Shown here in pieces: positions 10,041-38,164 of a DNA stretch of 64,000 nucleotides. Both the position numbers and the translations under genes were made by a program. This DNA is from a virus. The DNA lies in the IMG/VR virus record IMGVR_UViG_3300012984_000012, positions 65,881 through 129,880 of that record. One strand, 5' to 3'. Every line of letters starts with the position of its first letter. Positions within the stretch are counted from its first letter, which is position 1. The notes below the pieces were generated by a model, which saw nothing but the letters and a program-made list of their open reading frames with translations, searched no databases and was not told the origin of the DNA.

Positions 10041-10264
10041 GTCGTATCAAGCTGGTCAGTGACCTGTTGTCAGACGGCGTGACTCGCACTGCCTCTGATG
10101 TCTTTTATGCGTTATACTCTGAGTTTCAAGGAAGGTCATCAAAGATGACGCTCGCGTCGCTGTCTGGCACTCTCAAGCAGATGACAGACTGTGGTTACGT
10201 TGAAAGAGTTGAGAACTTTGGCCCTCGCGGAGGTTATGGTTACTATCGCACGAGGAACACATGA
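10037..10264 (+). CDS. Small winged-helix-like protein
   Basis: MSRIKLVSDLLSDG...SLSGTLKQMTDCGYVERVENFGPRGGYGY; ATGA overlaps at both ends. Confidence 0.55.
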   Translation: MSRIKLVSDLLSDGVTRTASDVFYALYSEFQGRSSKMTLASLSGTLKQMTDCGYVERVENFGPRGGYGYYRTRNT

Positions 10265-10989
10265 AGCAAGTTCACATCAAACAAAAGCTCGAGGAAATGG
10301 GCGTCGCCGTTGACGGCATCGTCATGGGTGATTTCGATCAGATCGGTGAGTTCACTGCCAAGCGTGACCGAAAACCTGACGATCCGAACTACAAGAAGTA
10401 CGGCGCCTTCTACCGAGCCAACTACGAGCGCGGCATCCTGATTTACCACCTCATCCGCCAGTACAACCTGACCTCGATGCTTGAGATCGGGTTTGGTCGT
10501 GGATATGCTACGTTTTGTGCAGCTCGAGCGTTTCACGATGCCGGCGTGGTTGGCAAGATCGTCACCATCGACCCATCGCTAGACGAGAATTACATCAGGG
10601 CGTTACAGAGCGTGTTACCTAACGACTGGTTCACGTACGTCACCTTCATGAAAGGTCGCTCACAAGAGGTCTTGCAAAAGGTCGAAGGTCAGTTCGATCT
10701 CGTGTACATCGACGGCGACCATTCTTACGCTGCCACAAAGGCTGACTGGGAACTCACCAAAGACAAGTACAACAAGTTCCTCCTGTTTGACGACTATCAC
10801 CTTCCCTCGAAAGAGGATAAGGGAACGATCCAGTGCAGCGTCGCCATCGACGAAGTCGATGACCCAAGCAAGGAACTGATCATCATGGATCGACGATTGT
10901 TTCTCGATGATCGTCAGTTCACTGACGACAAGATCAATTACGGTCAGGTCCTGCTCTCAAAACCAGGTGTCGAACGTGACGACTGGTGA
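10261..10989 (+). CDS. Class I SAM-dependent methyltransferase (Methyltransf_24-like)
   Basis: LEIGFGRG motif I; FDLVYIDGDHSY; FDDY. Confidence 0.88.
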   Translation: MKQVHIKQKLEEMGVAVDGIVMGDFDQIGEFTAKRDRKPDDPNYKKYGAFYRANYERGILIYHLIRQYNLTSMLEIGFGRGYATFCAARAFHDAGVVGKIVTIDPSLDENYIRALQSVLPNDWFTYVTFMKGRSQEVLQKVEGQFDLVYIDGDHSYAATKADWELTKDKYNKFLLFDDYHLPSKEDKGTIQCSVAIDEVDDPSKELIIMDRRLFLDDRQFTDDKINYGQVLLSKPGVERDDW

Positions 10990-11362
10990 ACCAGAGAATC
11001 GAGCGTGCTTTCGACCGCCTGTCGGTTGGTACTGCACGCGAAAACCTGATCACGAGGGTCCCTGTGCTGCGCATCCTGATCCACGAGTGACCGCAGCAAA
11101 GGACGTGTGCATCAGTTGTGAAACATACACGGAATACACGAACGTGTTTGGGCTTTACAAGGAACAGCTCGAAGCGATAAAAACCTGGCAAAAGAGTCAC
11201 GACGTCGAAAAACACATGGAACCAGGTCAGACACGTAGGTACTCTGGAGCGATAGGTGGAGCATACACGTATGAGTTCACCAGAACCAGCATAGGAACGT
11301 GTGTACACGTCCGTTGTGTTTGTGGAGAAGGCATTGATGTCTCAGACTACGACAACTGGTGA
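10976..11362 (+). CDS. Hypothetical Cys/His-rich protein
   Basis: Probable GTG start 10976; C..WYC..H.GPC, CISC, GAIGGAYTYEF..TSIG..V.VRCVCG. Confidence 0.6.
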   Translation: MTTGEPENRACFRPPVGWYCTRKPDHEGPCAAHPDPRVTAAKDVCISCETYTEYTNVFGLYKEQLEAIKTWQKSHDVEKHMEPGQTRRYSGAIGGAYTYEFTRTSIGTCVHVRCVCGEGIDVSDYDNW

Positions 11363-24423: not shown

Positions 24424-24522
24424 GACTTTAAATAGGTGTACACTGTCTCTTGAGTTGAATACTCTATTGTCAGATGGTACATTGCCATCCTGACTTAGAC
24501 CCAGTGAGGGTTGTCAGAACTT

Positions 24523-24535
24523 ACACGGAGAGTGT
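24523..24535 (+). promoter_or_regulatory. 13-mer ACACGGAGAGTGT (SD in a hairpin loop), copy 1
   Basis: Identical copy at 25905-25917 in front of NAMPT. Confidence 0.6.
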
Positions 24536-24536
24536 C

Positions 24537-25550
24537 ATGCACGAGTTTGGGATTTACATCGGACGTTTTCAACCTGCGCACCTCGCTCACATCGCGACTG
24601 TGCGTTTTGCGCTTTCTCAGGCCAAGCGTGTCCTGATCGTCATCGGTAGCGACAACCAAGCAAGAACGATCAAGAACCCATGGACGACTGCTGAGCGCAT
24701 TGCCATGATTGTCGGCGCTCTCACCCTCGAAGAGCAAGGTAGGATCACCTTCATCCCGATGCGTGATTACCTCTACAACGACAACCTCTGGATCGCTGAG
24801 ATCCAACGCACCATCACGGCACACACCGGTCCCTCAAAGGACGTCGTCCTCATCGGTCACGAAAAGGACGCTTCAAGCTTTTACTTGAAGCTGTTTCCTC
24901 AATGGACACTCATCCAGTCTGGTGTGAACATGCCAGGCGTTGACGCGACCAAGATCAGGGAGCTCATGTTTTCGCTCGACAAGATCGGCATCAAAAACTT
25001 CCTCCCAGAGAGCATTTACAACGACGTGTGTCACTTCATGGAAATGCCTGAATTCGACAGGCTCCATGCTGAGCACCACCACATCAAAGACTATAGGTCG
25101 CAGTGGGATAGCGCTCCATTTGCACCGATGTTCGTCACGGTCGATGCGATCTGCGTCTGCAGCGGTCACGTCTTGGTCGTACGAAGGGGAGGCGAACTCG
25201 GAAGGGGCCTAATCGCATTACCTGGCGGTTATCTCAACGGAAACGAACGAATCGTCGATGGCGCGGTACGTGAGCTTAAGGAGGAGACGGCGATCAAGAT
25301 GCCCGCTCTCGAACTCAAGAAACTCATCGTTGATGAAAAGGTGTTCGATCACCCGAACAGGTCGCTTCGCGGGCGCACGATCACACATGCGTTTTGCATC
25401 AATTTGGGTCGTGGCGAGCTTCCCAAGGTAAAAGGTTCAGACGACGCCGATAAGGCGTGGTGGATGCCTCTCGACACGGTGTACTCGCAAGAGGCAAGTT
25501 TCTTCGAGGATCACTTTCACATCATCACGTACTTCATCAACAGGATCTGA
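24537..25550 (+). CDS. nadM: Bifunctional NMN adenylyltransferase / Nudix ADP-ribose pyrophosphatase
   Basis: IGRFQPAHLAH, KNPWT..ER, DYLYND..W, GHEKDASSFYL..FPQW; Nudix box PGG...E....A.RELKEET; SDDA; alternative start at 24474. Confidence 0.93.
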   Translation: MHEFGIYIGRFQPAHLAHIATVRFALSQAKRVLIVIGSDNQARTIKNPWTTAERIAMIVGALTLEEQGRITFIPMRDYLYNDNLWIAEIQRTITAHTGPSKDVVLIGHEKDASSFYLKLFPQWTLIQSGVNMPGVDATKIRELMFSLDKIGIKNFLPESIYNDVCHFMEMPEFDRLHAEHHHIKDYRSQWDSAPFAPMFVTVDAICVCSGHVLVVRRGGELGRGLIALPGGYLNGNERIVDGAVRELKEETAIKMPALELKKLIVDEKVFDHPNRSLRGRTITHAFCINLGRGELPKVKGSDDADKAWWMPLDTVYSQEASFFEDHFHIITYFINRI

Positions 25551-25927
25551 TGAAACACCTGACTTGTTTCGTCGCTGGGCCATACTCGTCCAAGTACGGT
25601 TGGCCGGGCAGGGTCTATAATGTCGCCAAGATGCTGGTGTTCGTCCGTCGCATCCTGAAGATGGGAATCATGCCAATCGGTCCGAACGCCATGTACTTTT
25701 GGTTCTCAAAGTGCCAGCCTTACGAGTTCTGGCTGCCAGGGACCCGAAGCATCCAAGAGAAGTGTGACGTCATCTTTTTCATCCCGGGTTGGAAGGTCTC
25801 TGGCGGCGCTCGTCAGGAATATGAGCACGCAGAATCAATCAGCCAACCCATCTTCACATCGCTACTGTCGCTAAAGGTCTTCAGTGAGAGGACCTCATCA
25901 CAAAACACGGAGAGTGTGTCATCATGA
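25550..25927 (+). CDS. DUF4406 / nucleoside-deoxyribosyltransferase-like protein
   Basis: FVAGPY...CDVIFFIPGWKVSGGARQE. Confidence 0.7.
   Translation: MKHLTCFVAGPYSSKYGWPGRVYNVAKMLVFVRRILKMGIMPIGPNAMYFWFSKCQPYEFWLPGTRSIQEKCDVIFFIPGWKVSGGARQEYEHAESISQPIFTSLLSLKVFSERTSSQNTESVSS
25905..25917 (+). promoter_or_regulatory. 13-mer ACACGGAGAGTGT, copy 2
   Basis: Identical to 24523-24535. Confidence 0.6.
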
Positions 25928-27363
25928 AATACGCAAGAAAAAAGGACCTGGTCCTCAACAACATCAACGATACCGACAGCTATAAGTTCAGTCACTACCT
26001 TCTGTACCCAGACGACATGGAGTACATGGAGAGTTACTTCGAATCCCGAGGCGGCGAGTTCGATGAGTGCACCCTGTTTGGGATGCAGTACATCTGTCAC
26101 AAGTACCTCTCGAAGAAGATCACGTTGGAGGACATCAGCGAGATCGAGCGCGATGCGCTAGCACATGGCGAACCTTTCAATCTCGCGGGATGGCTTCACA
26201 TTCTGGACAAGTACGACGGTAACCTGCCTGTGACGATCCGAGGCATCCCTGAAGGCATGATCGTGCCGGTCAAGAACGCCATCCTCGTCGTCAGAAGTCC
26301 CAGGGATAAGAGGTGTGCTTGGATCACCAATTGGATCGAGACGCTGCTGACGCGTGTTTGGTACCCGTCTGTCGTCGCCATCGGTAGCCGCGAGGTCAAG
26401 AAAGTCTGGCTGCACTACCTCCAGCTGTCCAGTGACGACCCAGCCGCAGAAATCTCTTTTAAGCACCACGATTTTGGCGGTCGTGGTGTCACGTGTCAAG
26501 AACAGGCGATGCTCGGCGGGGGAGCCCACTTGATGAGCTTCTTGGGCAGCGACACCATGGCAGGCATCAAGTGGGTGAATCACTACTACGATTGCTTGAT
26601 GTCAGGATTCTCGATCCCAGCGACCGAACACTCCACGATGACGATCCGCGGCGAGGAAAACGAAGAGGAGACTGTCGTCACCTGGGTCACCAAGACGCTC
26701 GTCGAGCGCCAGGTCCCAACCGGGATGCCCAAGCTTTCTGCTTGCGTGGGCGACAGCTGGAACATGTTCAGGTTCACGAGGATGGTCTGCCAACCTCGCA
26801 TCCGAGAGCTCGTCAAAGGTTCTGGTGGCACTCTCATCGTCCGCCCGGACAGCGGTGACCCGGTCACCACGCTTCAAAAGATCTTCGACATCTTCGAAGA
26901 GTGCCTGCCTGAAGGTGAGATCACCGTCAATCGCAAGGGTTACAAGGTTTTACCAGATTACTTCAGGATCATCTGGGGCGATGGCATCAACCGTCGTTCG
27001 ATGAAGAAGATCCTACAAACAGTCGTTGACTATGGTTGGAGCGTGTCGAACATCGCTCTAGGTTCGGGTGGAGGCCTGCTCATGGATTTCAATCGTGACA
27101 CCCAGAAGCATGCCTTCAAGTGTTGCGCAGCCTGGGTCGGCGGGCGGTTGGTGCGGGTCTCGAAGAACCCAATCACCGATCCTGGCAAGAGGTCGAAAGA
27201 AGGTCGTCTAGACCTGATCAGGACTGAGAATGGTTTTGAGACCGTCATCCTCGACGATGGCGTCGACGTGCACCCGAATAGCGTCTACGTCACGTACTTT
27301 GACATCGGCGATATCTGTTACAACACTACGGCAGACGAAGTTCGTGCCCGTATGGCAATCTGA
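25924..27363 (+). CDS. nadV: Nicotinamide phosphoribosyltransferase (NAMPT)
   Basis: TDSYKFSH, YFESRGG, WYPS, HDFGGRG, SIPATEHS, RPDSGDP, GDG, GSGGGLL, NRDT, DPGKRSKEGR. Confidence 0.93.
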   Translation: MKYARKKDLVLNNINDTDSYKFSHYLLYPDDMEYMESYFESRGGEFDECTLFGMQYICHKYLSKKITLEDISEIERDALAHGEPFNLAGWLHILDKYDGNLPVTIRGIPEGMIVPVKNAILVVRSPRDKRCAWITNWIETLLTRVWYPSVVAIGSREVKKVWLHYLQLSSDDPAAEISFKHHDFGGRGVTCQEQAMLGGGAHLMSFLGSDTMAGIKWVNHYYDCLMSGFSIPATEHSTMTIRGEENEEETVVTWVTKTLVERQVPTGMPKLSACVGDSWNMFRFTRMVCQPRIRELVKGSGGTLIVRPDSGDPVTTLQKIFDIFEECLPEGEITVNRKGYKVLPDYFRIIWGDGINRRSMKKILQTVVDYGWSVSNIALGSGGGLLMDFNRDTQKHAFKCCAAWVGGRLVRVSKNPITDPGKRSKEGRLDLIRTENGFETVILDDGVDVHPNSVYVTYFDIGDICYNTTADEVRARMAI

Positions 27364-27377
27364 AACGGACAAACAAA

Positions 27378-27884
27378 ATGATAGAATACCTCGTGGGTGA
27401 CGCCACCCATCCCAACGGCCCAGACGTCAAGATCATCGCACACGTTGTCAATGACATCGGTCGTTGGGGACGAGGTTTCGTCCTGTCAGTGACCAAGCGA
27501 TACCCGGTCGCTGAACACGCTTATCGTGAATGGAGCAAGGGAGAAGGAGAACACCCTTCTCCGTTTGCGCTAGGTGAGACACAACTCGTGCACGTGGGTG
27601 ATGGCATTCACGTTGCCAACATGGTCGGACAGCACGATGTCATGACAGTGAATGGCGTGCCTCCCATCAGGTACGATGCTCTAGAAAGCTGCCTGACAAA
27701 GCTAAGGATCTTTGCCAAGCTGTTGGATGCCTCTGTTCACATGCCCAGGATAGGATGTGGCCTAGCAGGTGGAAAATGGTCAGAGGTGGAGGCGATCGTC
27801 AACCGTGTCCTTGCTCACGACGTAAGAACAGTCGTGTACGACTTCGACACGAAGGACAACAGAACGGTGCCATGGAACAAGTAG
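27378..27884 (+). CDS. Macro-domain protein (Poa1p/TARG1/DarG-like)
   Basis: GDAT, IAHVVND.G.WGRGF, ANMVGQ, HMPRIGCGLAGGKW. Confidence 0.9.
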   Translation: MIEYLVGDATHPNGPDVKIIAHVVNDIGRWGRGFVLSVTKRYPVAEHAYREWSKGEGEHPSPFALGETQLVHVGDGIHVANMVGQHDVMTVNGVPPIRYDALESCLTKLRIFAKLLDASVHMPRIGCGLAGGKWSEVEAIVNRVLAHDVRTVVYDFDTKDNRTVPWNK

Positions 27885-28075: not shown

Positions 28076-28231
28076 CTGTACAACGGCACGAAGAAGGATT
28101 ACTTACTAGACATGCTACGAGAGTTGTGAATGCAAGGCGGTTGAACCGCAGTGTCTTGCGCGAGGACCTCCTCGACTAACACGTTCCGATCAGTTCGCTG
28201 TACGTGTTTTGTTTTGAGATGAAAGAGGTCT
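28076..28231 (+). promoter_or_regulatory. Putative promoter plus leader peptide/attenuator (uORF MLREL-UGA; +1 frame encodes ARGPP; anti-SD)
   Basis: CTGTAC-N18-TACTTA, ATG 28112 six nt later; TGA-A at 28127-28130; CGA GGA CCT CCT at 28161-28172; GGACCTC (28164-28170) complementary to GAGGTCT (28225-28231). Confidence 0.45.
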
Positions 28232-28234
28232 ATT

Positions 28235-28627
28235 ATGCTCACTGGTATTCAAGTTCTTCGTGCTAAGGTTCGTGGCCTGCAAGCTGCAGGTATTTCCATT
28301 CACAATCGTATTCGTAAGGCAAAAGGTCCGAAGCGAAACAAGCTGTGGGATGACAAGCGTACGCTCGGCAGTTACAGTCGGGAACACCTGATTGCTTACG
28401 GGTTGATGCGTGGCGTCCCGTATGATAGGATCGAAAGATGCGCAAAGGGAAACCAACCAAACGCTCGAACACTGTTCGAGCTGATGAAGGCTCACGCCGA
28501 TTGGAAAATGGCAAGGGAGCTCACCCTCGAAAAGGTCGAGGCGCTGCTGACGCCGTCAACCGAGCCAGTTCCTCGGTCAAACAGGCTCATGCGAAGGGCT
28601 CAAAAGGCCCTCGAAAAAAGCGCGTGA
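28235..28627 (+). CDS. Basic hypothetical protein heading the Pth2 operon
   Basis: SD GAGGT; R.HLIAYGLMRG.PY..IE motif. Confidence 0.75.
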   Translation: MLTGIQVLRAKVRGLQAAGISIHNRIRKAKGPKRNKLWDDKRTLGSYSREHLIAYGLMRGVPYDRIERCAKGNQPNARTLFELMKAHADWKMARELTLEKVEALLTPSTEPVPRSNRLMRRAQKALEKSA

Positions 28628-28635
28628 GGCAAGCC

Positions 28636-28977
28636 ATGGCCACCATTAAGATGGGCGACAAGCTCTTTCTAGTGACACGTCGTGACATCGCGCCTGGTTA
28701 TCAGGCCGTCCAGTCGTGTCACGCCATGAGGCAGTTCACCGCTGATCATCCTGAGGTCGATAACGACTGGTTCGCGAAATCAAATTACCTAGCGCTGTTG
28801 TCAGTCGACAACGAGATCGAGCTGATGAGGCTCCTCGTTGCCGCTACCGATGCTGGGTTAAGGTCATCTGCGTTTCGCGAACCAGACGTCGGTGGAGCCA
28901 TCACCGCTATCGCCATCGAGCCACACCCAAAAGCAGCAGAGTTGTGTAAATCGTTACCCCTGGCCCTTAAGGTCTGA
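28636..28977 (+). CDS. Peptidyl-tRNA hydrolase type 2 (Pth2)-like protein
   Basis: KLFLVTRRDIAPGYQAVQSCHA...L.V.NE.EL...FREPDVGGAITAIAIEP...LPL follows the PTH2-family layout. Confidence 0.8.
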   Translation: MATIKMGDKLFLVTRRDIAPGYQAVQSCHAMRQFTADHPEVDNDWFAKSNYLALLSVDNEIELMRLLVAATDAGLRSSAFREPDVGGAITAIAIEPHPKAAELCKSLPLALKV

Positions 28978-28992
28978 TCAGGTAACGAGAAA

Positions 28993-29628
28993 ATGATGAC
29001 CGAGCTCGATCGCACTTCGTTGAAGGTTTTTGGCCTGACTGGTGGGATTGCTAGCGGCAAGAGCACCGTCAGTCGGCTCTGGGCAAAGTGGGGAGTTCCC
29101 ATCGTTGACGCTGACCTGGTGTCACGCCAGGTGATGGTCCCGGGAGCTCCCGCCTTCAATGCTATCATCGAGTGTTTTGGGCTCGAGATAGTGACACCCA
29201 CGGGTGAGATCGACAGGAAGGCTTTGGGAAGCATCGTTTTTAGCGACAGCAAGAAACGAGCGTTGCTCAACTCAATAGTACACCCGAGGATCGCAAGCCA
29301 GACTCGAGCCATGTTCTCAGAGCTTCGTAGCAGCGGTGAAAAGCTAGCGTGTTATGACGCCCCGCTGTTGATCGAAGGCGGATTTGCAGCCGCTTTCAGG
29401 CCACTCGTCGTCGTCACGGTCCCGCCTGACGTTCAATTAAACAGGGTCATGGCCCGAGATGACCTGACTGAACAAGAGGCAAGATCTCGGATCTCGGCTC
29501 AGATGTCGCAGGACGCAAAGGTCGAGAAGGCTGACATCGTGATCAACAACGATGACGACCTATCAATGTTGATGTTTCGTGCTCGTCAGGCTCTTGACAG
29601 GGTGATGCAGATGGTTTCGGTCCCGTAG
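28993..29628 (+). CDS. coaE: Dephospho-CoA kinase
   Basis: GLTGGIASGKSTV, DAD, IDRKALG..VF, HPRI, DAPLLIE, R..AQM, ADIVINN. Confidence 0.95.
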   Translation: MMTELDRTSLKVFGLTGGIASGKSTVSRLWAKWGVPIVDADLVSRQVMVPGAPAFNAIIECFGLEIVTPTGEIDRKALGSIVFSDSKKRALLNSIVHPRIASQTRAMFSELRSSGEKLACYDAPLLIEGGFAAAFRPLVVVTVPPDVQLNRVMARDDLTEQEARSRISAQMSQDAKVEKADIVINNDDDLSMLMFRARQALDRVMQMVSVP

Positions 29629-29691
29629 CTCAGCGGTAGAGCATTCGGATTTCAACCCGATTTGTCGTGGGTTCGACCCCCACCGGGATCA
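29619..29691 (+). tRNA. tRNA with 8-nt anticodon loop ATTTCAAC (Glu-UUC plus 1 nt, or quadruplet UUCA); non-Glu-like body
   Basis: GGTCCCG/CGGGATC acceptor, GCTC/GAGC D-stem, TCGG/CCGA anticodon stem, 5-nt variable loop, GTGGG-TTCGACC-CCCAC, A73. Confidence 0.85.
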
Positions 29692-29694
29692 CAC

Positions 29695-29766
29695 GCTCTC
29701 ATAGCCTAGAGGTCAGGCAATCGGATTTCAACCCGAGTGACACAGGTTCGAACCCTGTTGAGAGCG
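29695..29766 (+). tRNA. tRNA-Glu-like with 8-nt anticodon loop ATTTCAAC
   Basis: GCTCTCA/TGAGAGC acceptor, GCCT/AGGC D-stem, TCGG/CCGA, 4-nt variable loop, ACAGG-TTCGAAC-CCTGT, G73. Confidence 0.85.
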
Positions 29767-29770
29767 CAAG

Positions 29771-30064
29771 ATGGACGACAAGGCATACATCTGCGACGGG
29801 TGTGGTGAGAGGATCACTGACGAAGAGCTGGTCATCTCTGAGACAGATCCTGACCTGTGGAAACACCCGTTCCGTGAGGTGTGCCTGAAGATCCGAGAGC
29901 AGAACAGTGAGCCAACCCCTCCAGCCCAGCTGTACCACCAGCGTCACGGCTATAACCGGTTAACCCGTCGCACAGAGCCCTATTTATGTGGGACGTTGCA
30001 TCTCGAGACTGAGCAAGAGTACTTCATCCACTGGATTGGGTATGGGATGAAGATTGATACCTGA
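29771..30064 (+). CDS. Hypothetical protein
   Basis: 97 aa, CDGC motif. Confidence 0.55.
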   Translation: MDDKAYICDGCGERITDEELVISETDPDLWKHPFREVCLKIREQNSEPTPPAQLYHQRHGYNRLTRRTEPYLCGTLHLETEQEYFIHWIGYGMKIDT

Positions 30065-36493: not shown

Positions 36494-38164
36494 ATGGCTG
36501 AAGGAAGCGGATGTCAGGTGCACGCGGGGATCATTGACGACAAGTGCAAGCTCACGCCTAAGGCAAAGAAAAAATTCATACAGGCTGTCAAGGACGAGCT
36601 CACGTTCGGCACAGCAAACATGCCCGTGCCTCCTCTTTTCCCATGTGGCGATCCAGTGCCGCCTAACCCGTTTGCGGGTCTGCTGCTCCTCGAAGACGAA
36701 AAAAAGTACCCTGAGTTTCACAAGAACATCTTGGGAACGTACGAAAAGATCGCCTGTGCCCTTAACCTGAAATCAGACTTCAAGTTGCTTCCCATCTGTT
36801 GTCCTGTCTCGTTAGGCTTTAAGCTCGGCGTCAATTTCAAGATACCCAACTTTCCAAGCGGTTTCATACCTTTCATGATCCCAAATCCTCCGTTGCTTGC
36901 GTTGAAGATGAAGATCATGCCACCACCGAAGCTCATCGCAAAGTTCCCTGGGATCCCGGCAATTCCACCGCCTTTGCCCACGTTTCCAATTCCTCCTGAC
37001 ATCAAGGTCCCAGAGTTTAAGACGTTGTTCGATTTCTCGCTCTCCTTTGCGTTAAACGTGCCAAAGTTCCTGGTCACGCTCGTCGCAAACATTCCAAAAC
37101 TGGTGCTTAAGCTACCGAACCTTCCAGACCTGTTTAAGTCGATCTGCGATCTCGCTTTCGAGGCAAAGCTTTTTGGTGACATCAGGCCAGACGCCGTCAC
37201 GCAGATCGTCGCCATCAAGGTCCTGACGACAAAAATCGTTGAGATGGTCTTCATCGCAGCGATTGGATCCACGTTGGGCTCATCGCCTGGTGGGATAACA
37301 GGCGGCATCGGCAAGTTCTTGGGATATGACCCGCCCGAGGACGCTGCAGACCCGCAACCCGAGTCGCCTCGTGACAAGATCGTGAGCTACGCGAAAGAGA
37401 TGATCGACACGGGTTACGGCGCTGGAGCAGCCAAGCAAGACACGTATGCGTCACACCTGTTGTTAGTAGAGTATGCTGAACCTGGAAAAGGCCCTCAGGC
37501 TGACCCACGTGCCCTTGGAAAATCAAGGACACTGGCTAAATTAAAGAGCGCATCAAGTTGTGGTCTCGTGGCCCGAGCGTGTCTCGCGAACGGCGGAGCG
37601 AGCTTTGTCTTTGACTCAAAGGTCGACACCAGCAAGCAGGACCCATCTGTCAACCTCTATTATGATTTCTTTCTCGATCGATATCGTGATGGCACAGCGA
37701 TTGCTGGCATCTACACTGCGGCAAAGAAAAAGGACGCGATCATCCCATACAAGAGCGGCGACCTGCCTCCTCTCAAGAAAGGTGACGTCATCATCATTGA
37801 GAAACGAGGAAAGCTGGGTAACGAACACGTTCTCGTTCTGATCAAGGACTACAAGCCCGGAAGCTTTTCAATGACCACGGTCGAAGGCGGTCAGTCTGAT
37901 CCGGGAAATGGTGGAAAACCGACCGCGGTAAAGCAGTGGGAGTACATTAACGCAAAATCCGTTCCCAAGAACTCAAAGAAACTTAGCATGTACATCGGGT
38001 CAGGAAACCAGATCTACATCGCAGGTCGCACAGTATTGGCATTGATCGATAGCGAGAAACTATGTACTGACCAGACTGGAGCTGACATGTCTAGGTCTCA
38101 CGGGTCGATCGACACCTCGATCGCGAAGGACGGGCCAGGCAGCGGGTTCCAGCCGGTGACGTGA
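36494..38164 (+). CDS. Baseplate-associated protein with Pro-rich N-terminus and CHAP/NlpC-like C-terminal domain
   Basis: SSCGLVARAC (Cys), KKGDVIII, EHVLVL (His), TTVEGG. Confidence 0.6.
   Translation: MAEGSGCQVHAGIIDDKCKLTPKAKKKFIQAVKDELTFGTANMPVPPLFPCGDPVPPNPFAGLLLLEDEKKYPEFHKNILGTYEKIACALNLKSDFKLLPICCPVSLGFKLGVNFKIPNFPSGFIPFMIPNPPLLALKMKIMPPPKLIAKFPGIPAIPPPLPTFPIPPDIKVPEFKTLFDFSLSFALNVPKFLVTLVANIPKLVLKLPNLPDLFKSICDLAFEAKLFGDIRPDAVTQIVAIKVLTTKIVEMVFIAAIGSTLGSSPGGITGGIGKFLGYDPPEDAADPQPESPRDKIVSYAKEMIDTGYGAGAAKQDTYASHLLLVEYAEPGKGPQADPRALGKSRTLAKLKSASSCGLVARACLANGGASFVFDSKVDTSKQDPSVNLYYDFFLDRYRDGTAIAGIYTAAKKKDAIIPYKSGDLPPLKKGDVIIIEKRGKLGNEHVLVLIKDYKPGSFSMTTVEGGQSDPGNGGKPTAVKQWEYINAKSVPKNSKKLSMYIGSGNQIYIAGRTVLALIDSEKLCTDQTGADMSRSHGSIDTSIAKDGPGSGFQPVT

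Follow-up and report, generated by a model that had tools for sequence, protein, structure and literature searches.

How do two tRNA genes with unrelated bodies, standing in tandem in a phage genome, come to share one anticodon arm whose loop is a nucleotide too long, and what would such tRNAs read? The question is raised by a 64,000-nucleotide (nt) stretch of IMG/VR virus record IMGVR_UViG_3300012984_000012 (positions 65,881 to 129,880, the second half of the 129,880-bp record), hereafter called the window, in which an initial annotation had noticed two tandem tRNA genes (tRNA1 and tRNA2) with an identical 16-nt anticodon arm and 8-nt loop. We hold with good confidence that both tRNAs are natural quadruplet decoders that read UGAA and act as a translational key for a nearby gene of 130 codons, termed X. 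It is also reasonably likely that they belong to a widespread phage module in which X is combined with an orthogonal suppressor tRNA and an arrest leader that depends on recoding, and that one large branch of this module has a natural four-base decoder (UUCA/UGAA or UCUA/UAGA); quadruplet decoding that is natural, selected, and employed as a regulatory key would then be described for the first time.

Both genes were recognized as tRNAs when ARAGORN was run as the initial annotation had advised, at 29619-29692 and 29695-29767, with the isotype left between Glu and selenocysteine (SeC) under the label 'tRNA-?(Glu|SeC)(tc)'; with the Rfam tRNA model RF00005, whose gathering score is 29, tRNA1 scored 55.2 bits and tRNA2 51.4 bits. 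The shared arm, TCGGATTTCAACCCGA, occurs exactly twice in the window, no further site with up to two mismatches was found there, and its chance expectation is 0.02, with two or more copies in 0 of 100 shuffles. The 8-nt loop, AUUUCAAC, is carried on different bodies, as had been described, with the acceptor, D, variable, and T arms all differing: tRNA1 has the acceptor GGTCCCG/CGGGATC, the D stem GCTC/GAGC, a variable region of 5 nt, and A73, and tRNA2 has GCTCTCA/TGAGAGC, GCCT/AGGC, 4 nt, and G73. By eye, tRNA2 but not tRNA1 shows the D arm and 4-nt variable region of a Glu-type tRNA, with UUC-A present in a loop of 8 nt. The arm can be drawn with 4 bp and an 8-nt loop, with 5 bp including an A.C mismatch and a 6-nt loop (the ARAGORN drawing), or with a 7-nt loop and a bulged C; each drawing leaves one surplus nucleotide compared to a normal 7-nt anticodon loop.

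The view that a sequencing error was unlikely held up, as a contig from soil DNA run X4, whose study differs from that of the likely source runs, covered positions 29605-29900 with 0 differences, so that the extra base cannot have arisen through faulty assembly of the record. A relative of about 90% identity in metatranscriptome run X6 carried the compensatory changes T29721C and A29736G in tRNA2 only. The contig from X6 does not by itself show transcription, and stretches without cover in runs X4, X5, and X6 are uninformative.

The initial annotation had called for a search of phage genomes for the same arm, and this succeeded for the loop but not for the arm itself. The exact 16-nt arm gave 22 matches in IMG/VR, 0 of 22 within a tRNA called by ARAGORN, and these were set aside as chance. 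By contrast, a pattern with the D arm and loop fixed and the stem free returned 5 loci, all 5 with tRNAs bearing the loop ATTTCAAC on differing stems, and a looser pattern built on the loop and the T loop returned 32. These comprised 17 loci with ARAGORN-called tRNAs with an 8-nt loop, 3 with ordinary tRNA-Glu(UUC) and the 7-nt loop ATTTCAA (L030, L033, and L054), 6 with tRNA-like genes that have deviant D arms and are rejected by ARAGORN, and 6 chance matches. The ARAGORN-silent genes (L032, L034, L038, L043, L049, and L055) combine the ATTTCAAC loop with sound acceptor and T arms, their D arms being deviant or missing; several adjoin X and a TGAA leader. Tandem pairs of two unlike bodies were also found in L026, L037, L040, L042/L051, and L052, with the loop ACTTCAAG on one partner in L040 and L052. 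The identical stems of the two window tRNAs are thus specific to this lineage, and in relatives the loop is kept while the stems differ. Two other probes were less productive: BLAST of each tRNA against GenBank phages returned ordinary tRNAs only (Gly, Lys, Val, and Asn; CcrColossus and Tunturi_3 were inspected) and led to no isotype assignment, and the neighboring CoaE, used as a probe for related loci, gave 18 pattern matches, none of which was confirmed.

The loop form N-Y-UUCA-A-N was present in 34 distinct tRNAs, with the four-base anticodon flanked by Y33 and a purine. When 27 UUCA tRNAs from different contigs were aligned, 93.1% of the cloverleaf cells were paired, compared to 70.7% in shuffles, and double-sided changes were seen in 20 of 21 cloverleaf pairs. 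The three loop-proximal pairs of the anticodon stem were paired in all 27 tRNAs with many double changes, and TTCAA was invariant. Because the cloverleaf is kept paired by double changes around an invariant TTCAA, the expanded loop is, judging from this alignment, a conserved and selected feature. Several relatives encode CCA, unlike the window copies.

Gene X came to light when the open reading frames (ORFs) flanking the odd tRNAs were clustered: the X family was present in 12 of the 18 loci found via the tRNA pattern, and contigs that share nothing else still share it. Five contigs seemed to be without X, but longer stretches of these contigs showed it in 5 of 5, each with an RGPP leader of the TGAA/+1 kind. 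An hmmsearch with X added 4 loci at which the deviant tRNA had been missed by ARAGORN. Besides X, no gene recurs among the neighbors across 80 X-derived loci. In the window, the leader of X starts 1.5 kb upstream of the tRNAs, with X just behind it (Table 1).

The leader in the window is an upstream ORF (uORF), MLREL, that runs into the quadruplet TGAA. Beyond the TGA, frame 0 holds MQGG-stop only, and the +1 reading begins CKAVEPQCLARGPPRL and holds RGPP, in agreement with the pattern R-(A/G)-P followed by P of the RAPP/RAG-P arrest peptides. Ahead of the quadruplet, the +1 frame contains no ATG, GTG, or TTG. The RGPP codons contain GACCTC, complementary to GAGGUC in the Shine-Dalgarno (SD) sequence of X, and in both the minimum free energy and the centroid folds the RGPP-coding stretch is predicted to pair with that SD; among 13 leaders folded, 7 had an anti-SD:SD pairing of 7-12 bp.

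The same design, a uORF followed by TGAA and a +1 continuation, stands upstream of X in 12 of 12 pattern-derived loci, found in 11 by a scripted motif and in L048, whose leader reads MY-TGAA-CFKPP-stop, by eye. The Arg codon of the motif varies between loci (CGA, CGT, AGA, CGC, and AGG), so conservation is at the peptide level. The composite motif uORF-TGAA-(+1)-R[AGDP]PP matched 18 times in 1.14 Mb, 16 of them at X leaders, compared to 0-1 matches in each of 5 shuffles, and at three loci it pointed to tRNA-like genes missed by ARAGORN. Among 52 distinct TGAA leaders, 49 lacked ATG, GTG, or TTG in the upstream +1 frame, the uORF was mostly 2-5 codons long, and in 50 the motif began 1-5 residues past the quadruplet (RGPP 20, RAPP 11, RSPP 6, RDPP 6, TGPP 4, and other 5). 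The base after TGAA was T in 46 of the 52; the next +1 codon encoded Cys (TGC or TGT) in 26, and UGAAUG also makes an in-frame AUG after the stop. The codons ahead of TGAA, ACC (10), AAC (8), ACG (8), TTG (4), and others, cannot re-pair in +1. Nothing in these leaders corresponds to a long nascent chain bearing an arrest-relieving signal for secretion or the membrane.

In an independent test, IMG/VR was searched with an alignment of X rather than with the tRNA, yielding 153 relatives. From these, 80 loci were retained, 77 of them non-duplicate, and these 77 were scored by scripted leader rules blind to the anticodon. A TGAA/+1 leader with PP stood at 41 of the 42 loci whose arm was of the 8-nt UUCA type. 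The 13 loci with a 7-nt CUA arm had TAG in frame 0 in 11 cases and were scored TGAA/+1 in 2, giving a Fisher p of 7.5e-9 for TGAA/+1 at UUCA versus CUA loci. All three loci with an 8-nt UCUA arm (L084, L097, and L103) had TAGA/+1 and none had TGAA; a fourth UCUA/TAGA pair was present in L155, a genome contig. No arm was found at 14 loci, where leader types were mixed and 8 were TGAA/+1, and the remaining 5 of the 77 had other or mixed arm types. Single loci follow the same rule: L066 pairs a UUA tRNA with the TAA/0 leader MT-TAA-ITGPP-stop, and L105 pairs a 7-nt UCA tRNA with the frame-0 TGA leader MK-TGA-VHKPP-stop. In four CUA loci (L074, L089, L093, and L119) there is no arrest leader; the in-frame TAG is codon 3 of X itself (M-T-TAG-I...), and an ordinary CUA suppressor adjoins. 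Since the TAG is there inside X, either architecture would require suppression, and from these arrangements translation of X is predicted to depend on the adjacent suppressor-type tRNA, via a stop inside X or via the leader.

The module is also present in isolated phages. Stenotrophomonas phage DLP_5 has X followed by an annotated tRNA-Sup-CTA and an amber-type leader, MK-TAG-VYKPP-stop; DSS3_MAL1 has a module of the CUA type; and Phage NCTB has the TGAA leader MLNN-TGAA-CNRGPP. The module in isolates such as DLP_5 and NCTB is thus open to direct testing.

We propose the following mechanism, for which the computation supplies the anatomy, its recurrence, the anticodon-leader covariation, the missing +1-frame start, and the predicted pairing. 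The 8-nt loop would present U34-U35-C36-A, i.e., the anticodon of tRNA-Glu(UUC) and A37 with one base inserted on the 3' side, as comparison with the loops of ordinary phage tRNA-Glu suggests. UUCA would pair with U-G-A-A in the leader, in an operon that also carries the tRNAs, and compete there with release factor. Where release factor wins, translation would end at UGA and the SD of X would stay paired with the upstream CCUCC-containing stretch. Where UGAA is decoded in one step, probably with insertion of Glu, the ribosome would enter the +1 frame, translate about 10 further codons, and stall on R-G-P/P, a RAPP/SecM-type arrest motif. The stalled ribosome would cover the anti-SD GACCUC stretch, freeing the SD for translation of X. 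Decoding could rest on four-base pairing in the A site or on pairing of a triplet with the +1 shift made afterwards, as described for SufB2.

The initial annotation had offered either quadruplet (frameshift) decoding or opal suppression. Four-base decoding gains from the conserved UGAA site, the +1 arrest motif, and the covariation, and the opal part fares poorly. If the loop is parsed as x-U32-U33-UCA-A37-C38, the tRNAs would be triplet suppressors with a UCA anticodon and an extra 5' loop base that read UGA in frame; SeC/UCA is among the ARAGORN readings, and a second loop type, ACUUCAAG, fits U33 in this parse only. The peptide, however, is in the wrong frame for it: in the window the reading that follows TGA in frame 0 stops after MQGG and RGPP lies in +1, the PP motif is in +1 at 41 of 42 UUCA loci, and it is the locus with a true 7-nt UCA tRNA, L105, that has a frame-0 TGA leader. 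The window tRNAs have an 8-nt loop in place of UCA in a 7-nt loop, and we regard opal suppression as very unlikely. A +1 shift made by the ribosome or by host tRNAs, with the 8-nt-loop tRNAs as linked passengers, could come about either by slippage or by out-of-frame binding of host tRNA-Glu. In prfB, which encodes release factor 2 (RF2), an autoregulatory +1 frameshift at an in-frame UGA arises by P-site slippage on a slippery codon, aided by an internal SD, and no special tRNA is needed. Here no slippery P-site codon that re-pairs in +1 was found; ACC, AAC, ACG, TTG, and the others ahead of TGAA are not slippery, which argues against such slippage, and where the leader quadruplet changes, the type of anticodon changes with it, which contradicts passenger tRNAs. 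There is accordingly only a slim chance that the tRNAs are bystanders.

The leader also bears on a further suggestion of the initial annotation, that these are tRNA-Glu(UUC) decoders, or decoys, whose bulged-C arm resists or soaks up host anticodon nucleases, the leader being unrelated. The loop does equal that of ordinary phage tRNA-Glu, ATTTCAA, plus one base (L030, L033, and L054), several members are labeled tRNA-Glu by ARAGORN, and the tRNAs sit among genes for nicotinamide adenine dinucleotide (NAD) salvage, Pth2, and other counter-defence-like functions. Left unexplained are the co-occurrence with X and the leader, the covariation of UUCA/TGAA, UCUA/TAGA, and CUA/TAG, and the fact that X-linked tRNAs are always of suppressor type; moreover, the relative G007 has its own normal tRNA-Glu(UUC) and Glu(CUC). 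A Glu-specific bacterial anticodon nuclease was not met in the literature, in a search that was not thorough. We therefore consider a nuclease-related role improbable. Decaying or nonfunctional tRNA genes, with the extra base inserted by slippage in a C run, are scarcely credible: the base does lie in or beside a C run in the window, but loops such as CTTTCAAT hold no C run, the 8-nt loop is kept over dozens of divergent contigs with differing stems and compensatory changes, and the sequence is identical in an independent DNA run.

Several observations nevertheless weigh against quadruplet decoding as the key to X. The deviant D arms of some family members raise doubt about normal charging, and the upper anticodon stem is irregular, with pair 27:43 unpaired in 17 and pair 28:42 in 8 of the 27 aligned tRNAs; this odd upper stem may be relevant to four-base decoding, and several of the 27 allow an alternative drawing with a bulged base in the 3' strand of the stem. 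The only trace in an RNA library, the contig in metatranscriptome run X6 that spans coaE and both tRNAs, may reflect DNA carry-over. In the leader, anti-SD pairing was weak or absent in 6 of the 13 folded, and the fold z-score of the window leader was unremarkable (-0.57). The covariation has exceptions: in the 2 CUA loci scored TGAA/+1 the sites lie inside X and are apparently spurious, and L121 has a UUCA arm without a clean TGAA/+1 leader. The L121 leader reads ...TTGATGAATTTAGAGCACCTCCTTAA, with FRAPP-stop after a TGA-TGA-A arrangement and no clean uORF start. TGAA further serves as the normal stop of 14 among the 127 crude gene calls made in the record, and of 99 among 514 in G007, and is not depleted; since an efficient UGAA decoder would hit these stops, the decoder must be weak or context dependent. 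Finally, expression, aminoacylation, four-base decoding, arrest, SD unmasking, and any role of X are all steps that we infer, and any purpose of the circuit is a guess.

With this in mind, we favor a key-and-lock or timer, in which X would be made only after maturation and charging of the tRNA that the phage encodes. A homeostatic loop, with suppression damped by X, has about the same likelihood, and a checkpoint for recoded late genes in this lineage is disfavored.

To our knowledge, four-letter decoding of this kind is known from laboratory mutants and engineered systems only. The suppressors sufD, sufA6/SufB2, and sufJ and the engineered quadruplet tRNAs likewise have an 8-nt loop with one inserted base and decode four bases in one step; those, however, are spontaneous laboratory mutants of cellular tRNAs or designs, whereas here the genes are wild-type phage genes, conserved across numerous lineages and accompanied by a partner gene and a cis target of their own. 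Natural quadruplet tRNAs are described in PMC9094753 as spontaneous suppressor mutants, with natural cases expected to be very rare. Yeast mitochondrial tRNA-Thr1 naturally has an 8-nt loop too, but it reads CUN triplets in frame (PMC3113583), with no frameshift or leader. UCUA/UAGA pairs have been employed in engineered systems too (PMC4764823), and in E. coli quadruplet tRNAs derived from Glu and Arg scaffolds are still charged with the cognate amino acid (PMC9094753). Such charging would fit UUCA, which is Glu derived, and UCUA, which is Arg derived.

The regulatory side has its own precedents. In Streptomyces, the bldA tRNA-Leu(UAA) gates regulators that contain TTA; there too one dedicated tRNA licenses particular genes, but bldA reads a rare sense triplet, and here the phage tRNA would read a stop or quadruplet at a leader. 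As in prfB, the choice between termination at UGA and a +1 event would set gene expression; prfB, however, uses no special tRNA and makes RF2 itself, whereas here there are a dedicated tRNA, non-slippery codons, and a shifted frame that encodes an arrest peptide. The leader peptides would be, as far as we know, the shortest RAPP-type arrest peptides. They resemble SecM, ApdA, and ApdP in having R-A/G-P followed by P; those are long in-frame monitoring substrates whose arrest is relieved by secretion, compared to about 8-15 residues after recoding here, with tRNA activity as the putative input. RAP/P and RAG/P are presented as established arrest sequences (PMC10951233), and the stalled ribosome is thought to open the start of the next gene (PMC10951233 and PMC7897499). 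The 'code change modules' of stop-recoded phages likewise combine phage suppressor tRNAs with suppression that times expression; such phages have in-frame stops in many genes (bioRxiv 10.1101/2021.08.26.457843), and the preprint text consulted mentions neither X nor the leader, whereas here the code is standard and there is a single evident target, the leader of X or X. In full-text literature searches covering few subscription journals, we found no description of natural phage quadruplet tRNAs, recoding-dependent arrest leaders, or the X family. The components, 8-nt-loop suppressors, RAPP arrest, and leader control, are of known kinds; what appears new is their natural combination and a selected natural use of four-base decoding.

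In many phage lineages, four-base tRNAs appear to have been retained by evolution within a dedicated context, a short uORF and UGAA followed by U. If confirmed, the module would represent a new type of gene switch with a tRNA as the trans-acting key, provide naturally evolved pairs of quadruplet tRNA and codon context as parts for genetic-code expansion, make the competition between 8-nt loops and release factors directly accessible, and give a function-linked entry to the large unannotated phage protein family X.

As to X itself, neither Pfam nor PHROG gave a match. The family has at least 563 matches, with no Pfam domain among the 120 matches listed, and 4431 representatives of 50% clusters at an E of ≤1e-3. 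The AF2 model, with a pLDDT of 91.8, shows a helical hairpin plus small helices. Foldseek against PDB returned nothing at an E of ≤1e-3, the VIA wide search gave generic helical hairpins only (best Z of 9.0), BFVD gave uncharacterized phage proteins only, and the ESM Atlas no usable match. In cellular genomes, searched as one genome for each of about 185,000 species, X is rare, with 9 loci. Our best guess is a regulator or effector, with its production licensed or timed by the tRNA that the phage itself encodes.

The window has further features around the module, collected in Table 1. Immediately ahead of the tRNAs, NAD-salvage genes, including a nicotinamide mononucleotide (NMN) adenylyltransferase, make up a metabolic or counter-defence-like island together with a 168-amino-acid ORF, Pth2, and CoaE, and tRNA1 overlaps the last 10 nt of the CoaE gene. 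The start of the Pth2-like gene was inferred from the conserved MATIKMGDKLF. This gene stands beside X in 7 loci of the phage group, and the enzyme may recycle peptidyl-tRNA dropped from the 2-5-codon uORF. The promoter-like element, seen by eye, ends 6 nt before the ATG of the uORF, and a similar CCTGTACA-N17/18-TAnnTA-N6-ATG lies upstream of the uORF in L028, L042/L051, and L046. A scan for sigma-70 promoters and terminators gave nothing informative, and the element does not match the sigma-70 consensus; it may be phage specific and give a leaderless or near-leaderless uORF transcript.

Table 1. Features of the module and its surroundings, numbered from the first nucleotide of the window
Feature	Position	Strand	Details
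NMN adenylyltransferase/Nudix fusion and NAMPT (NAD salvage)	24474-27363	+	upstream of the tRNAs
168-amino-acid ORF	27378-27884	+	no Pfam match; follows NAMPT
Promoter-like element (putative)	28076-28105	+	CTGTAC-N18-TACTTA
uORF MLREL	28112-28130	+	ATG CTA CGA GAG TTG, ending in TGA-A (28127-28130)
+1-frame arrest-like ORF	28131-28217	+	CKAVEPQCLARGPPRLTRSDQFAVRVLF; RGPP codons 28161-28172; stop 28215-28217
SD region of X	28222-28230	+	AAAGAGGTC; predicted pairing with RGPP-coding stretch
Gene X	28235-28627	+	130 amino acids; neighbor clustering and hmmsearch
Pth2-like peptidyl-tRNA hydrolase	28636-28977	+	Pfam PF01981, E 2e-6; start ATG 28636
CoaE (dephospho-coenzyme A kinase)	28993-29628	+	Pfam PF01121, E 8.4e-57
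tRNA1	29619-29691	+	arm 29645-29660; 8-nt loop 29649-29656; proposed UUCA 29651-29654; CCA not encoded
tRNA2	29695-29766	+	arm 29721-29736; loop 29725-29732; proposed UUCA 29727-29730; CCA not encoded

Relatives of the record have a CheckV completeness of 6-38%, and one relative, the phage G007, is complete at 369,475 bp and has terminal repeats; the record is therefore probably a piece of a jumbo phage. G007 has 55 ordinary tRNAs, tRNA-Glu(UUC) and Glu(CUC) among them, one amber suppressor, a transfer-messenger RNA (tmRNA), and two UUCA tRNAs about 2 kb downstream of X. Its amber suppressor (CUA; 36781-36856, minus strand) lies within a large tRNA array, and a single X gene was found in this genome. 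The tmRNA of G007 is at 265088-265457, and the phage record likewise has one outside the window (G000:C1, 25321-25688, minus strand) with the tag ANDNGTAPLALVA; a possible role would be in handling run-off ribosomes produced by read-through or frameshifting.

The record as a whole uses the standard code, and global recoding was rejected: 97% of its length falls within standard-code ORFs of 100 or more codons, and more of the crude gene calls end in TGA than in any other stop (73 of 127). In G007, a long +1 continuation without an early start followed 4 of 99 TGAA stops, compared to 9 of 88 TGAC, 9 of 89 TGAG, and 10 of 104 TGAT, i.e., no enrichment after TGAA. The leader of X is the only evident UGAA target. 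A methyltransferase gene (10261-10989) that ends in TGAA and is followed by a 123-codon +1 ORF was rejected as a second target, as the relative G001 has TAA-T at that place and a downstream GTG start. The +1 ORF (10976-11362) overlaps the methyltransferase end, has its own GTG start, and encodes a Cys/His motif of the type GW.C.R..HEGPCAA that is conserved in G001.

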